Below, in pieces: positions 2,310 to 5,683 of a DNA stretch of 5,683 nucleotides. Below the pieces are notes generated by a model. It saw nothing but the letters and a program-made list of their open reading frames with translations. It was not told where the DNA came from and made no database searches. Origin of the DNA: a virus. Every line of letters begins with the position of its first letter. Position 1 is the first letter of the stretch. The position numbers were made by a program, and so were the translations under genes. Where the stretch lies: positions 1 through 5,683 of the IMG/VR virus record IMGVR_UViG_3300045988_020466; one strand, written 5' to 3'.

Positions 2310-2338
2310 TTGACAAACACAGAAAAGGGGTGTATATT
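2310..2338 (+). promoter_or_regulatory. Sigma70-type promoter P1: TTGACA (2310-2315), 17-nt spacer, TATATT (2333-2338) preceded by TG
   Basis: Consensus -35 hexamer, 17-bp spacer, and a 5/6 -10 hexamer. It lies directly after the VP2 stop and about 40 nt upstream of the RBS and ATG of the 70-aa ORF. Confidence 0.6.
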
Positions 2339-2378
2339 ATGAGTGTACCAATCACACACTTAGGTTAGGAGGATAACC

Positions 2379-2591
2379 ATGAGGAGTCAGATCACAAAGA
2401 GATTTAACATCAACCTGACAGATAAAGAACAGGCAGCACTAAAAAACCTGACGGAAGAGTATGCAAACCGAAACTGGAAAGCAAACACTTCAGACATCAT
2501 CAGGGACGCTATCGTATACTACAGCGAAAAGATGACAGACTATAAAATTGCAGCAGAAGCAATCAGCGAAGAGGAAGACTTGCCCTTCTAA
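2379..2591 (+). CDS. 70-aa ribbon-helix-helix (Arc/MetJ/CopG-like) putative DNA-binding transcriptional regulator
   Basis: RBS AGGAGG at 2367-2372 lies 6 nt before ATG 2379. The N-terminus KRFNINLTD has an alternating polar/hydrophobic beta-strand pattern with basic residues. It is followed by helix A (KEQAALKNLTEEYA), a short turn, and helix B starting with an N-cap (NTSDIIRDAIVYY). This is the classic RHH topology. The fold assignment is by eye only. Confidence 0.5.
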   Translation: MRSQITKRFNINLTDKEQAALKNLTEEYANRNWKANTSDIIRDAIVYYSEKMTDYKIAAEAISEEEDLPF

Positions 2592-2602
2592 GAGACGATT
2601 TT

Positions 2603-2618
2603 GCCGGGCAGACCCGGC
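2603..2618 (+). other. Short GC-rich hairpin (GCCGGG-caga-CCCGGC) downstream of the RHH ORF; a U-run (2645-2650) follows at a distance
   Basis: 6-bp perfect GC stem with a 4-nt loop. The T-tract is about 25 nt downstream, so this is not a canonical intrinsic terminator. Confidence 0.25.
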
Positions 2619-2671
2619 CAAATCTGCAACATTTATCCATAGGTTTTTTTAAGAAAGTGCTAAATTTTGTG

Positions 2672-2716
2672 TCAGTGGGCCCCTATAACATCAAGAGGGT
2701 TATAGGGGCCCACTGA
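2672..2716. repeat. Perfect 18-bp inverted repeat with a 9-nt loop (tcagtgggcccctataac-atcaagagg-gttataggggcccactga), immediately upstream of the VP4 gene
   Basis: The left arm 2672-2689 is the exact reverse complement of the right arm 2699-2716. It is the largest perfect palindrome in the genome. No T-tract follows it, so it is not a standard terminator. Confidence 0.85.
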
Positions 2717-2737
2717 GGAAAGGCGCAGCGAAACTAT

Positions 2738-3847
2738 ATGTCATGTACAAGACCGCTCGTCAGAATACCGACAAAAGATGGTGATTACCGCGTAGTAAGC
2801 CTAAAAGGATACTTGAGTCACAGCGGTAAAAACCTCGAAATAGTCGCAGATAAAGAGCGTCAGAACCTGAACGAGAAAAAAATCAAAGAGCTGATAAGGG
2901 ACCAGGAAGCGCAGCTGCTACCGTGCGGACAATGTCCGGGATGCAAAATGGCAGCAGCATCCAGCTGGGCGAACAGAATGGAGCTAGAGCTTCCGTATCA
3001 TCAGAATGCGTGGTTTATCACGTTTACATACGATGACGAGAACGTGCCATACCGAATGACATGGGACGAAGGAACAGGCGAAATGCTGGTAGAAAATTAC
3101 AGTCTCCGCTACGAAGACATGCAGAAATTCTGGAAACGCCTCAGAAGGTACATGGAGTATCACAAGATAAACAACGGAAAACTGATGTACTTCCAGTGTG
3201 GTGAATATGGTGGAAAAACACACAGACCACATTATCATGCGATCGTGTACGACATACCATTCACCAAAGAAGACCTAAAGGTCTACAAAAAGAAAAACGG
3301 CGCTGTATATTACAACGTCGATTGGTTTACCGAACTATGGGGCATGGGCCATGTGGTCATCGCAGCAGCAGAGTGGAAAGCGATGGCATACACAGCAAGA
3401 TACACCACGAAAAAGGTCTATGGAAAGGAAGGAAAAGAATTTTACAAAGAGCTGGGAATTTTACCTGAGAAGTGCAGCATGAGCAAAAGACCAGCGATTG
3501 GAGCAAAATACTTCGAAGAACATAGCGAAGAAATCTATGCAAAAGACAAAATCCAGCTGAAGAACGGAAAAGTTTGCAAACCGCCAAGGTATTTTGATAA
3601 GCTATACGATGCACAGTGTCTGAGAAAACCACTCACAGACAAAGAGGTAGAAGACATTGAGCTGACAATAGAAAAAGCCGAGTCCGATGAGCTCAAAGCG
3701 ATAAAGAGAAAACGTCGCAAGTTAGCAAACGACGCACTCTTCGCCAAGCTCAAGCAGAACAACGGCTTAACCATGCAAGAGTATTATAACAAAGAGGAAC
3801 AGAAAATACAAGACAGGTTCAGAAAACTCATCCGGGAAGAAATCTAA
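2738..3847 (+). CDS. VP4: Replication initiator protein VP4 (HUH rolling-circle endonuclease, phiX174 gpA-like), 369 aa
   Basis: Motif I FITFTYDD, motif II HRPHYHAIVYDIPF (HUH), and motif III AYTARYTTKKVYG (two catalytic Tyr spaced as in phiX174 gpA YVAKYVNKK) are present. There is an N-terminal MSCTRPL and a CGQCPGC zinc-ribbon-like motif. All of this is typical of gokushovirus VP4. Confidence 0.88.
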   Translation: MSCTRPLVRIPTKDGDYRVVSLKGYLSHSGKNLEIVADKERQNLNEKKIKELIRDQEAQLLPCGQCPGCKMAAASSWANRMELELPYHQNAWFITFTYDDENVPYRMTWDEGTGEMLVENYSLRYEDMQKFWKRLRRYMEYHKINNGKLMYFQCGEYGGKTHRPHYHAIVYDIPFTKEDLKVYKKKNGAVYYNVDWFTELWGMGHVVIAAAEWKAMAYTARYTTKKVYGKEGKEFYKELGILPEKCSMSKRPAIGAKYFEEHSEEIYAKDKIQLKNGKVCKPPRYFDKLYDAQCLRKPLTDKEVEDIELTIEKAESDELKAIKRKRRKLANDALFAKLKQNNGLTMQEYYNKEEQKIQDRFRKLIREEI

Positions 3848-3871
3848 GGAACGGCTAAATAAGGGAATGCA

Positions 3872-3910
3872 GACGGCGTGGCCTCGAAAGGCTGCGCCGT
3901 CCTTTTCATT
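3872..3910 (+). terminator. Rho-independent terminator after VP4
   Basis: A 12-bp GC-rich stem (gacggcgtggcc / ggctgcgccgtc, with two G-U pairs in RNA) and a 6-nt loop, followed by CUUUUCAUU. Confidence 0.6.
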
Positions 3911-3953
3911 CGGCGCACCGCGCCGACCGGACGGCCTTAAACTCAAAAAGTGC

Positions 3954-3982
3954 TTGACAAGTGTATAATTTAGGTGTATAAT
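3954..3982 (+). promoter_or_regulatory. Perfect-consensus sigma70 promoter P2: TTGACA (3954-3959), 17-nt spacer, TATAAT (3977-3982)
   Basis: Both hexamers match consensus exactly with optimal 17-bp spacing. It lies 28 nt upstream of ATG 4010. It contains tandem GTGTATAAT repeats. Confidence 0.7.
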
Positions 3983-4009
3983 AAAGGTGTAGAAAGGACG
4001 GTGCTTAAA

Positions 4010-4192
4010 ATGACCGAAATCGAAAAAATCAAAAAGAGCATCCAGAACCAGATAGATCAACAGGAAAGAAACTACTACAAAGACCTTAAGAGCAAAGCAA
4101 AGCACACAGATGGTACAGAGATGTACAAAGTAGACAGCCACAAAATCGAAGCGCTGGAAGTAGCACTGAGAATAATCGAAATGTATGAATAA
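4010..4192 (+). CDS. Hypothetical 60-aa highly charged, helical protein (MTEIEKIKKSIQNQIDQQERNYYKDLKSKAKHTDGTEMYKVDSHKIEALEVALRIIEMYE)
   Basis: ATG 4010 lies downstream of the predicted P2 start site, with AAAGGA 11 nt upstream. The GTG at 3974 given in the ORF track lies inside the -10 element and is unlikely to be the start. The ORF is flanked by its own promoter and terminator. I do not recognise a family. Confidence 0.55.
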   Translation: MTEIEKIKKSIQNQIDQQERNYYKDLKSKAKHTDGTEMYKVDSHKIEALEVALRIIEMYE

Positions 4193-4195
4193 ACC

Positions 4196-4242
4196 AAAAA
4201 ACGTGAGGTTGACGAAAATCAGCCTTGCGTTTTTTTTTTTTT
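4196..4242 (+). terminator. Rho-independent terminator, a hairpin flanked by an A-tract and a 13-T tract, which could also act bidirectionally
   Basis: The structure is aaaaaacg-tga-GGTTGA-cgaaaa-TCAGCC-ttg-cgtttttttttttttt. The stem is interrupted, with 13 consecutive T at 4230-4242. It lies immediately after the stop of the 60-aa ORF. Confidence 0.6.
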
Positions 4243-4250
4243 GGTAAAAT
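4242..4250 (+). promoter_or_regulatory. Candidate extended -10 promoter (TGgTAAAAT) for the late gene cluster
   Basis: It matches the TGnTAnAAT pattern. No good -35 is present: TTGCGT lies 14 nt upstream, which is suboptimal. It sits upstream of the VP8-like / VP5 / VP3 / VP1 cluster. Confidence 0.3.
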
Positions 4251-4459: not shown

Positions 4460-4579
4460 ATGGCACATCGTATGCCGGTCAACCCGAAAAAGGACAAGCG
4501 GGTGTTTACCAACACCGCGAAGAAAACCAAGAAGATCAACGTCAACCCGAAGCCGTCGAGAGGAGGCATCAGGCTGTGA
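4460..4579 (+). CDS. VP8: Small basic DNA-binding protein (gokushovirus ORF8/VP8-like, phiX174 J analogue), 39 aa
   Basis: RBS AAGGAGG at 4448-4454 lies 5 nt before ATG 4460. The product MAHRMPVNPKKDKRVFTNTAKKTKKINVNPKPSRGGIRL is very K/R-rich and ends in RGGIRL. This resembles the C-terminal RGGIRF of the chlamydiaphage ORF8 protein, as I recall it. Confidence 0.6.
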   Translation: MAHRMPVNPKKDKRVFTNTAKKTKKINVNPKPSRGGIRL

Positions 4580-4668
4580 ACGAAGTACAGCTTATCATCA
4601 AGGTAATAACGCTCAGTCTGCTCATCGCAGATCTGTACATGATCGTCAAAATGATTCGGAGGAAATAA
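4576..4668 (+). CDS. 30-aa single-pass transmembrane peptide (MNEVQLIIKVITLSLLIADLYMIVKMIRRK), a candidate lysis or membrane peptide
   Basis: The GTG start overlaps the TGA stop of the upstream gene (ctGTGA). The RBS GAGAGGAGG (4558-4566) lies 9 nt upstream. The product has a roughly 22-residue hydrophobic core and a basic C-terminal tail (RRK). Its stop is 2 nt before the VP5 ATG. Confidence 0.4.
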   Translation: MNEVQLIIKVITLSLLIADLYMIVKMIRRK

Positions 4669-4670
4669 AG

Positions 4671-4934
4671 ATGGAATTCCAGATATACGCAATCAAGGAC
4701 GAACTTGCCGGGACCTTCGGCAATCTGATGGTGGTCAACGAAAAGGTGGCCGATCGAACAATGAAGTGGATGGCCCAGGAGATGGAGAAGGCCGACTGCG
4801 AAGATAAGCGGGTCTATCTGATGGGCAGCTACGACAACGAGACCGGCCTGATCAGGCCGGAGCAGATGCCGCGTCTGAGCTACAATCTCGAGTTGATGAA
4901 AAAGGAGCAGACGAATGGGAGTCAGAATCTTTAA
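4671..4934 (+). CDS. VP5: VP5-like protein (gokushovirus ORF5; ssDNA synthesis / phiX174 C analogue), 87 aa
   Basis: RBS GGAGG lies 7 nt before ATG 4671. The N-terminal pattern MEFQIYAIKDELAGTFGNLMVVNEKVADRTMKW...EDKRVYLMGSYDNETGLI follows the conserved VP5 signature (IY..KD..a..F..p......A.R.f ... ED..ly.lG.fD.eTG.i). It lies just upstream of VP3, as expected. Confidence 0.6.
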   Translation: MEFQIYAIKDELAGTFGNLMVVNEKVADRTMKWMAQEMEKADCEDKRVYLMGSYDNETGLIRPEQMPRLSYNLELMKKEQTNGSQNL

Positions 4935-5412
4935 GCCCTACGAGGACGAAAAACCGGTGGCACTGCCGAACGAACCGGGAAACCGGTTTGAGCCGGAGTA
5001 CAAGGAGCGGTATGATGACCGCGGACAGCCGTACCTTGAAAAGGTGGGCGAGGTGGACACCTACGAGAAAATCCAGAGCTACAAGGACGAGTGTGACGTT
5101 ATGGCTATCCTGAGCCGATACGCTGCCGGAGACGAGAGCGTCCTGGCAAAACCGGGGTGGTACATCGACACCAGCAAGCTGCCGAAGACCTATACCGAAT
5201 ACATGAACCTGATGAACGAGAAGCGGGAAGAGTTTAACCAACTGCCGCTCAGTATTCGCCAGGCATTCGGCATGAACTTCGAAAACTGGATGGCAACAGC
5301 CGGTGAACAGGAGTGGCTGGACAAAATGGGCATCAAAATTCAGCAGAATGCACAAGAAAAGGTCGATGCTGCCATCGAAGATGTTGTGCAGAAAGGAGAA
5401 AATAAAGAATGA
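4915..5412 (+). CDS. VP3: Internal scaffolding protein VP3 (165 aa)
   Basis: RBS AAAGGAG lies 7 nt before ATG 4915. It overlaps the VP5 3' end by 20 nt in another frame. Its stop overlaps the VP1 start (ATGA at 5409-5412). The product is acidic, with EKIQSYKDECDVMAILSRYAAGD and LPLSIRQAF regions like gokushovirus VP3. It sits directly before VP1. Confidence 0.65.
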   Translation: MGVRIFKPYEDEKPVALPNEPGNRFEPEYKERYDDRGQPYLEKVGEVDTYEKIQSYKDECDVMAILSRYAAGDESVLAKPGWYIDTSKLPKTYTEYMNLMNEKREEFNQLPLSIRQAFGMNFENWMATAGEQEWLDKMGIKIQQNAQEKVDAAIEDVVQKGENKE

Positions 5413-5683
5413 ACCGCAATGCTGAACAGCACTACTCTCAAGTTCCTCATGCAAACGTACCGCGAGCGAGATTCAAGCGAGACTACTCGCTGTTGACGAC
5501 CATGAACGAAGGAGACCTCGTCCCGATCTACTGTGATGAGGTGTTGCCGGCCGACACGGCAAAGATCAACCTGAACGCTCTGATGCGCATGAGCACACCG
5601 CTGTATCCGGTTATGGATAACTGTTACTGCGACTTCTACTTCTTCTTCATCCCGTCGCGTCTGCTCTGGGAACACTTCGAAAA
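5409..5683 (+). CDS. VP1: Major capsid protein VP1, N-terminal part, continuing at window position 1 through the circular junction (5629..5683 duplicates 1..55)
   Basis: ATG 5409 is preceded by an in-frame TAA at 5403-5405 and by RBS AAAGGAG 10 nt upstream. The translation MNRNAEQHYSQVPHANVPRARFKRDYSLL... is the canonical gokushovirus VP1 N-terminus, and the frame is continuous with 3..1370. Confidence 0.85.
   Translation, partial: MNRNAEQHYSQVPHANVPRARFKRDYSLLTTMNEGDLVPIYCDEVLPADTAKINLNALMRMSTPLYPVMDNCYCDFYFFFIPSRLLWEHFE

Follow-up and report, generated by a model that had tools for sequence, protein, structure and literature searches.

The Arc protein of phage P22 (immI region), a phage-encoded repressor of the ribbon-helix-helix (RHH) type, shuts its own operon off after a burst of early expression. 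Its operator lies over the promoter and contains 4-bp boxes (summarised in PMC2724298). In pMV158, the RHH gene encoding CopG is co-transcribed with repB, and the promoter of the two genes is occupied over about 50 bp, -35 and -10 elements included, by four dimers of CopG, which recognises 4-bp boxes (PMC2724298), while the boxes of the omega protein of pSM19035 are non-palindromic, direct or inverted, and form arrays over the promoters of several transcription units (PMC9499535). Here we analysed a viral stretch of 5,683 nt (IMG/VR record IMGVR_UViG_3300045988_020466), hereafter the window, in which two promoters, P1 and P2, carry GTGT boxes or their complement ACAC in an exact 13-bp phase, and in which P1 is directly followed by an open reading frame (ORF) for a 70-aa RHH-like protein. 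From the sequence evidence we conclude, with somewhat better than even confidence, that the boxes form an operator array through which this viral RHH protein would repress its own operon, comprising the RHH gene and the replication initiator (Rep) gene VP4, as well as the accessory cassette behind P2.

According to a promoter scan, P1 (TTGACA-17-TATATT, 2310-2338) and P2 (TTGACA-17-TATAAT, 3954-3982) are the two best sigma-70-type matches in the genome, with 11 of 12 and 12 of 12 matching positions, respectively. In each of them the array begins just past the -35 element, at about -28, passes over the upstream edge of the -10 element and the predicted start site, and ends at about +16. The boxes start at 2317, 2330, 2343 and 2356 in P1 and at 3961, 3974 and 3987 in P2, where a weak fourth starts at 4001. 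The individual features are as follows.

2310-2315, + strand: P1 -35 element TTGACA, which overlaps the VP2 stop codon and is invariant in at least 97% of 52 relatives
2317-2320, + strand: P1 box 1 (about -28), ACAC, an inverted GTGT exactly 13 bp before box 2, the weakest site
2330-2334, + strand: P1 box 2 (about -15), GTGTA, fused to the -10 element TATATT (2333-2338)
2343-2347, + strand: P1 box 3 (about -2 to +3), GTGTA, over the predicted start and forming the 5' arm of the dyad RGTGT-N9-ACACY
2350-2359, + strand: AATC (2350-2353) and P1 box 4 (about +12), ACAC (2356-2359), the 3' arm of the dyad
3954-3959, + strand: P2 -35 element TTGACA, conserved in relatives
3961-3965, + strand: P2 box 1 (about -28), GTGTA, within the promoter spacer
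3974-3982, + strand: P2 box 2 (about -15), GTGTA, fused to the -10 element TATAAT (3977-3982)
3987-3991, + strand: P2 box 3 (about -2 to +3), GTGTA, over the predicted start
4001-4004, + strand: P2 box 4, degenerate here (GTGC), 14 bp past box 3

A previous sequence-only reading of the window had described a motif repeated at 13-bp spacing in both promoters, and all of its coordinates are correct, namely GGTGTATATT at 2329-2338 and GTGTA at 2343-2347 in P1, and GTGTATAAT at 3961-3969 and 3974-3982 followed by GTGTAGAAA at 3987-3995 in P2. The motif is not similarly frequent elsewhere: a genome-wide search for GTGTAKAWW returned four matches against 0.24 expected, a number reached in none of 200 shuffles, and five of the six occurrences of GTGTA on the + strand of the genome fall within the P1 and P2 sites. 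Tandem Repeats Finder likewise reports a 13-bp repeat, of 2.4 copies, at 3961-3991. The 13-bp repeat of that reading thus stands, but its unit has to be redrawn as a box of 4 to 5 bp, in either orientation and at four phased positions, the true unit being the 4-bp GTGT or ACAC. With ACAC counted together with GTGT, a post hoc choice prompted by the comparative data, the 13-bp phase holds six pairs, three triples and one quadruple, against means of 0.43, 0.006 and 0 in 2000 dinucleotide shuffles; periods from 6 to 24 bp were compared, and no triple was found in the window at any other period in this range. The repeat pattern is real and not a product of chance.

For comparison, relatives were picked without use of the motif, by RHH homology, VP4 homology and whole-genome BLAST, resulting in 58 loci, in which the 112 nt upstream of the RHH gene take 52 distinct forms. 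In these 52 regions the -15 and the -2 box of P1 are GTGT without exception, the +12 box is ACAC in 50 and ACGC in two, and the -28 box is ACAC in 28, with GTGG in three and GTGT in one at the same phase. The elements GGTGTATA-T, ATG, GTGTA, AATC and ACAC are each preserved in at least 85% of the set, and most of their positions in at least 97%; variation is found in the dinucleotides 2348-49 and 2354-55, in the first part of the spacer and in all the DNA upstream of the -35 element. The same genomes diverge down to about 59% identity in VP4 and to about 30-45% in the RHH protein. Box 1 of P2 reads GTGTAT, rarely ATGTAT or GTGCAT, across all P2 copies, and the five to six bases after it vary (AATTTA, GTTTTA, ATTTTA, AAAAGA, GAAAGA, GCAAAA); its conservation is telling because RNA polymerase needs no specific spacer sequence. 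Box 3 of P2 is GTGTA in most relatives and ATGTA or GTGGA in a few, and box 4 is found as GTGTA at +13/+14 (L014, L019) or as inverted ACAC at exactly +13 (L011, L013, L048). In MG945373, P1 reads GTGT, GTGT, GTGT, ACAC in perfect 13-bp phase. Boxes 1 and 4 therefore occur in either orientation with the phase retained, and boxes conserved with variable spacers between them are the signature of a repeated functional box. The proposal of the sequence-only reading that the repeats are tandem -10 elements fails on the same comparison, since TAnnnT is not kept in each copy and it is GTGTA, not the TATAAT part, that is conserved: P2 copy 1 is GTGTATGTT, GTGTATATT or GTGTATAAA and copy 3 is GTGTAGAAA or GTGTAAGAA in relatives, with TATGTT or TATAAA as the hexamer part of the former and TAGAAA or TAAGAA as that of the latter. 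Besides, P2 copy 1 cannot act as a -10 element because it lies only 4 bp from the -35 element.

The presence of the arrays also goes with that of the RHH gene. All 21 RHH-positive genomes examined have triples of 13-bp-phased boxes, and have them at no site but P1 or P2, whereas none of seven RHH-negative gokushovirus relatives does, and the RHH ORF stands directly 3' of P1 in all 58 loci. The closest RHH-negative relatives, Dulem viruses 202, 205 and 206, with VP4 48-50% identical, are without P1; their gap between VP2 and VP4 measures 100-150 nt and holds just a conserved hairpin, and their accessory genes past VP4 are placed behind a different promoter, TTTACA-17-TAAAAT. Among GenBank phages, P2-like sequence was detected only in the four RHH-positive relatives, and that arrays of the P2 type are confined to genomes with the RHH gene is not a trivial finding.

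In Pfam, the protein encoded behind P1 matches RHH families only weakly, always below the curated cut-offs (Ta1207, 8.9e-4; DUF6290, 0.05; RHH_3; RHH_1, in four of 16 members, with a best E-value of 0.006), and one cluster has been named an Arc/MetJ-type RHH regulator by JGI. An AF2 monomer model (pLDDT 63) predicts an extended N-terminus followed by helices at 15-30 and 37-52, the topology expected of an RHH protein; a Foldseek search of the PDB with this low-confidence model gave no match at an E-value of 0.001 or below, and a sequence search of the PDB returned nothing significant, its best match being TTHA0139 (E=0.19), aligned over the full length. Conservation is complete or almost complete in two segments, the N-terminal strand (K/E)RxN(I/V)NLT and SDIIRDAI at the start of helix B. 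The same holds for residues K7, R8, N10, L13 and T14 and for the SD-IR motif, although the C-terminal halves of the proteins that carry them are of several kinds, unrelated in other respects; the middle of the protein and its C-terminal part can hardly be aligned between types. It is the strand and the start of helix B that contact DNA in RHH proteins (general knowledge, summarised in PMC2724298). When we searched for covariation between strand and boxes, the only variant was L132, with the altered strand KRVNVFLT and unchanged boxes, which is uninformative. Two relatives show rearrangements at this gene: in L391 (IMGVR_UViG_3300045988_022642), P1 is followed by a tandem of two RHH-like genes that differ from each other, and L379 has a 180-nt internal duplication within the RHH gene, probably an assembly artefact.

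A scan of metagenomes for the box pattern returned mostly GT microsatellites, the useful yield being eight clade members and a few promoters. Three of the matches in promoters head operons of RHH autoregulators, namely hicA-hicB in L423 and L518, whose HicB has a C-terminal RHH-like domain, and an RHH_9-PemK toxin-antitoxin pair in L484, where four GTGTA boxes stand at exact 13-bp spacing, the fourth beyond the search pattern. Five further HicB homologues (63-78% identity) were sampled, giving seven distinct clostridial hicAB promoters (L423, L518, L582-L591). In all seven the spacer has a GTGTA box, replaced by GCGTA in a single case, and the -10 element has GTGTATAAT; three have an extra GTGTA or GTGTC at the start site, and L591 has two box pairs. 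The HicB strand VRRNV[SA]LP aligns with the viral KRFNINLT in such a way that the outward-facing R and N coincide, so that hicAB and the viral system (KRxNINLT) have in common both the GTGTA boxes in spacer and -10 element and an R-x-N strand. They differ in that the core boxes of hicAB are 11 bp apart rather than 13, in that HicB possesses an extra N-terminal domain, and in that the two RHH profiles show no significant homology by hhalign. We know of no mapped operator for these clostridial HicB proteins. The parallel was drawn post hoc and is circumstantial; that GTGTA boxes may be read by R-x-N RHH strands is offered as a testable idea.

The view that the RHH protein occupies ordered sites, regulates its own gene and is shared by two transcription units, which the sequence-only reading had listed among several, is the best supported one, because the boxes are conserved with variable spacers, the RHH gene follows P1 in every locus, the DNA-reading strand is invariant, arrays are absent where the RHH gene is absent, and GTGTA recurs in HicB promoters. 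Dimers of the 70-aa protein would reach with their N-terminal beta-ribbon into one major-groove site after the next, with R8, N10, N12 and T14 of KRFNINLT as the proposed DNA-facing residues, and would bind the four boxes cooperatively, thereby blocking RNA polymerase at P1; the RHH-VP4 operon would in this way come under negative feedback. P2, and with it the variable accessory cassette, would be repressed alongside by this protein, and the late structural genes would be left unregulated. As for the extent of the P1 operon, there is no terminator-like site between the end of the RHH gene (2591) and the start of VP4 (2738), the first terminator being that at 3872-3901, and the sole promoter-like site past P1 and before VP4 is a weak 9/12 match within the RHH gene (2491-2520). 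Since no terminator intervenes, P1 probably drives VP4 too, by co-transcription with the RHH gene. Of the "two accessory transcription units" previously proposed, that of P2 is indeed accessory, whereas the one of P1 probably includes the replication gene.

The order of elements, P1, RHH gene and VP4, is like that of CopG-RepB in pMV158, where a small RHH gene also comes first, a rolling-circle rep gene follows, and the operator overlaps the promoter of the RHH gene; here, four 4-bp boxes lie over P1, the own-gene promoter of the RHH ORF, and span about 43 bp. The geometry, instead, is different. In the CopG operator the sites follow one another at a single helical turn, all on the same DNA face, and are centred on a 13-bp pseudo-symmetric element with TGCA boxes 5 bp apart, whereas the GTGT/ACAC boxes of this phage are 13 bp apart from start to start (9-bp gaps), which rotates successive sites by about 85 degrees; the 4-N5-4 inverted element of the CopG type is absent from the sites. 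Moreover, the host of the system is a virus and not a plasmid, and sequence similarity to CopG is marginal, so that the system may be CopG-like in its working without having a CopG operator. With omega it shares boxes in either orientation at several promoters, that is, a shared code, but omega reads contiguous 7-bp WATCACW heptads, at least two and typically 7-10 of them, which also function as a centromere, while this phage has four boxes at 13 bp and no evident partition function. A heptad code of the omega type was also considered for the window and rejected, the lone AATCACA at 2350-2356 not being conserved (AATCGTA or AATCGCA in relatives). In comparison with both CopG and omega, sites at 13 bp would spiral round the helix rather than align on one face. 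Arc resembles the viral protein in being phage encoded and the product of the first gene of its own operon; it differs in that an Arc tetramer binds just one operator, of 21 bp, in which two TAGA boxes are separated by 5 bp, and P22 is a temperate phage with double-stranded DNA.

Several observations weigh against an operator for the RHH protein. A period of 13 bp is not a helical repeat; CopG sites are spaced by one turn, and the boxes of Arc and CopG are separated by 5 bp. The -28 box of P1 is preserved in only about 55-60% of relatives. The central boxes partly coincide with generic promoter preferences, and the composite that they form with the -10 element is found in promoters without an RHH gene; the start-site box in particular is partly expected of any good promoter, which lowers its weight. 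The co-occurrence of P1 and the RHH gene is partly trivial because the gene travels with its own promoter and the two are always co-inherited in the clade, and the searches and the model described above point only weakly to an RHH fold for the 70-aa protein. A further caution against a reading confined to RHH proteins comes from L126 (IMGVR_UViG_3300022212_000150, 4598 nt), an inovirus-like genome with Zot and a Rep of family PF23343 and with no RHH ORF seen: on its reverse strand, at about 1100-1165, between rep and a gene-V-like ORF, TTGCAA is followed by three perfect tandem 13-mers GGTGTATAATAAA.

The boxes might need no regulator at all and be features of a strong host promoter (GTG before TATAAT, TGTA at the start), with P2 a duplicate of P1 under purifying selection. 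P1 and P2 are clearly paralogous, some P2 variants having the AAAAGAGGTGTATA spacer of P1, and the generic start-site consensus is T at -1, R at +1, T at +2 and A at +3, with TGTA enriched at that offset in unrelated promoters. In addition, the 18-nt composite of -10 element and start site, GTGTATAWTANRGRTGTA, matches many unrelated phage contigs, often exactly 17 bp past TTGACA, and the composite occurs in RHH-less promoters of phages and, in its P1 version, of clostridial chromosomes (e.g., that of a thioredoxin gene); none of the genes downstream of the non-microvirus matches encodes this RHH family. We nevertheless regard this explanation as unlikely. Generic promoters were examined in two unbiased IMG/VR samples of consensus promoters and in the other promoters of matching contigs: RTGTA at the exact offset was present in only 2 of 121 and 3 of 139 of them (about 2%), with no coupling to GTG before the -10 element, and GTG at -15 to -13 occurred in 0 of 17 other promoters in clostridial loci. 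Promoter preferences also leave unexplained the P2 spacer box, the +12 box, the phase kept through flips and the covarying flank of the dyad. To signals acting in RNA or single-stranded DNA (ssDNA), as a 5' hairpin RGUGU-N9-ACACY, as a Shine-Dalgarno-like GGUG or as a leader ORF tuning RHH translation, we assign a slim chance, somewhat below that of promoter preferences; such signals may coexist with the operator. The flanking pair 2342/2360 covaries (A-T 26, G-C 16, G-T 10, A-C 0) and the dyad stem is present in the minimum-free-energy fold; a mini-ORF, MSVPITHLG* (2339-2368), starts at the invariant ATG right after the P1 -10 element, and a Shine-Dalgarno-like purine tract precedes it in the promoter spacer. 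In relatives, a perfect AAAGGAGGTG stands 8 nt before this ATG, and the string GGAGGTGTATAATATGGGTGTA is a real ribosome-binding site plus start codon elsewhere. The mini-ORF (9-13 codons) is open in all 52 variants, ending at or overlapping the ribosome-binding site or start codon of the RHH gene, and its codon 8 is represented by five Leu and two Phe codons. However, P1 transcripts would contain neither the stem nor the ATG, their predicted start (about 2345) being within the 5' arm, and the mini-ORF could be translated only from read-through VP2 transcripts. The z-score of the hairpin fold is only -1.0; codons 4 and 6 vary at positions 1-2 with the third base fixed (A), the opposite of coding constraint, and the GTA, ATC and CAC codons show no synonymous change. 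P2, finally, has boxes but no ATG or leader ORF, and the -28 and -15 boxes are left unexplained.

Another protein could instead bind the boxes, be it a host factor (e.g., DnaA) or a viral one, namely VP4, with the boxes as origin iterons, VP5 or the VP8-like protein; we judge this improbable, the most so of the explanations weighed here. With the DnaA box 9-mer consensus taken as TTATNCACA, GGTGTATAA agrees with the complement of the DnaA box (TGTGNATAA) at eight of nine positions. A DnaA-box cluster was nonetheless rejected, eight of nine being the best match: the last base of the box is never the consensus one in any copy or relative, and not one of more than 80 box copies has T as the first base, which is critical for DnaA. 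A different binding protein would be in line with L126, an inovirus whose Rep belongs to the same Pfam family as VP4 and whose three 13-mers come right after the rep gene, and with similar triple or quadruple 13-mers in unrelated contigs (L451, L476, L482 in the promoter of a TetR gene, L517, L533 and L578). An origin is, however, expected to be unique and universal, whereas the array is present at two loci, of which P2 is absent in about 40% of the clade, and the RHH-negative relatives with VP4 48-50% identical are without arrays. A better candidate for the origin is the perfect 17-bp hairpin at 2673-2715, just upstream of VP4 (CAGTGGGCCCCTATAAC, loop ATCAAGAGG, GTTATAGGGGCCCACTG), which is conserved beyond the clade, with compensatory changes in the stem and a conserved loop, and is present even in Dulem viruses that are RHH-negative. 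The more distant gokushoviruses MG945592, KT264760 and Dulem virus 130 have this loop in reverse complement, so that CTCTTGATG, which contains CTTGAT, is on the coding strand. We take CTTGAT to resemble the rolling-circle nick motif of phiX174/pC194, and the hairpin is a candidate replication origin with the loop orientation flipped in this clade. With two loci, an optional P2 and a nick-like hairpin elsewhere, the iteron function suggested by the sequence-only reading is unlikely, and its other suggestion, binding by the VP8-like protein, finds nothing that points to that protein; nothing ties the VP5 gene to the boxes, nor the VP8-like one.

If the RHH protein does bind the boxes, this clade would possess a plasmid-like feedback of the CopG-RepB style on its replication initiator and, in a second such promoter, a slot into which variable small genes can be plugged. 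The type of circuit, an RHH repressor and its operator as in CopG-RepB or omega, would be a known one, and the novelty would reside in the microvirus setting and in the 13-bp geometry. It is conceivable, though we remain doubtful, that a clade of gut gokushoviruses, probably phages of Clostridia, carries in this way a self-contained early-gene regulon, in which an RHH protein of 55-70 aa and a 13-bp GTGT/ACAC code throttle the replication initiator and a hypervariable cassette. A 5.6-kb ssDNA phage would then gain temporal or copy-number control, perhaps even a carrier state. Control of this kind is generally held to be absent from microviruses, which are usually described as minimal phages with constitutive host-type promoters. 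Binding of the boxes by the RHH protein would change the view of gene timing and copy number in gut ssDNA phages, provide a compact and portable repressor-operator pair with unusual 13-bp geometry, and flag the genes of the P2 cassette as regulated early functions, e.g., in host takeover or anti-defence. In a full-text search of the literature we found nothing linking gokushoviruses or microviruses to RHH proteins or virus-encoded transcription regulators, and a survey of microvirus diversity reports only methyltransferases and lysis-related genes as accessory genes (PMC9239249).

The window corresponds to a single gokushovirus genome, circular and complete at 5628 nt, whose ends overlap here by 55 nt (1-55 = 5629-5683), and the + strand carries every gene. 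Identity to Human gut gokushovirus SH-CHD10 (KX513873) is 97%, and three microviruses from pig faeces are about 87% identical. The genes are the following.

5410 through the origin to 1370, + strand: VP1
1383-2309, + strand: VP2
2379-2591, + strand: RHH-like ORF, 70 aa, candidate repressor
2738-3847, + strand: VP4, replication initiator (Rep; PF23343, phrog_942)
4010-4192, + strand: 60-aa accessory ORF behind P2, followed by a terminator at 4196-4235
4460-4579, + strand: VP8-like 39-mer, one of the small ORFs
4671-4934, + strand: VP5
4915-5412, + strand: VP3

The 60-aa ORF behind P2 has no significant family match. In relatives (L002-L020, L026-L137), the P2 slot is occupied by at least five unrelated families of small ORFs (MTEIEK.., MKSYYEE..EKLKEYE, MENLYKNLDTETLNW.. 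with CxxC pairs, MKQWKFLAY.. and MKYVIDQNG..), and it is together with its cassette that P2 is missing in the part of the clade mentioned above. In L063 a terminator stands directly behind P2, most of the P2 ORF is deleted in L042, and in MG945373 the cassette is located behind P1, ahead of the RHH gene.

When GTDB genomes were searched with the P1 pattern for prophages and hosts, the 47 matches had no microvirus genes; they are ordinary, mainly clostridial promoters, in a number near the chance expectation. A host link through L014 (ENA ERZ27281030 k141_41694, 48 kb), in which a near-complete related virus lacking about 100 nt is joined to genes of bacterial or plasmid-like character (for an FtsX ABC transporter, HTH_3, DUF5720 and ALP_N), was rejected, as the viral end stops in the Illumina adapter AGATCGGAAGAGCACACGT; L014 is probably a chimeric assembly and unusable for inferring a host or integration.

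Past the P2 cassette, two further elements were observed. A strongly hydrophobic ORF of 30 aa (MNEVQLIIKVITLSLLIADLYMIVKMIRRK, 4576-4668), without a family match, overlaps the end of the VP8-like gene and is possibly a membrane or lysis peptide. Downstream of the P2 ORF, the terminator (stem at 4196-4235, then a T-run) leads directly into TGGTAAAAT (4242-4250), an extended -10-like element with no GTGT box close by; relatives retain this element, which may serve the structural operon as a late promoter.

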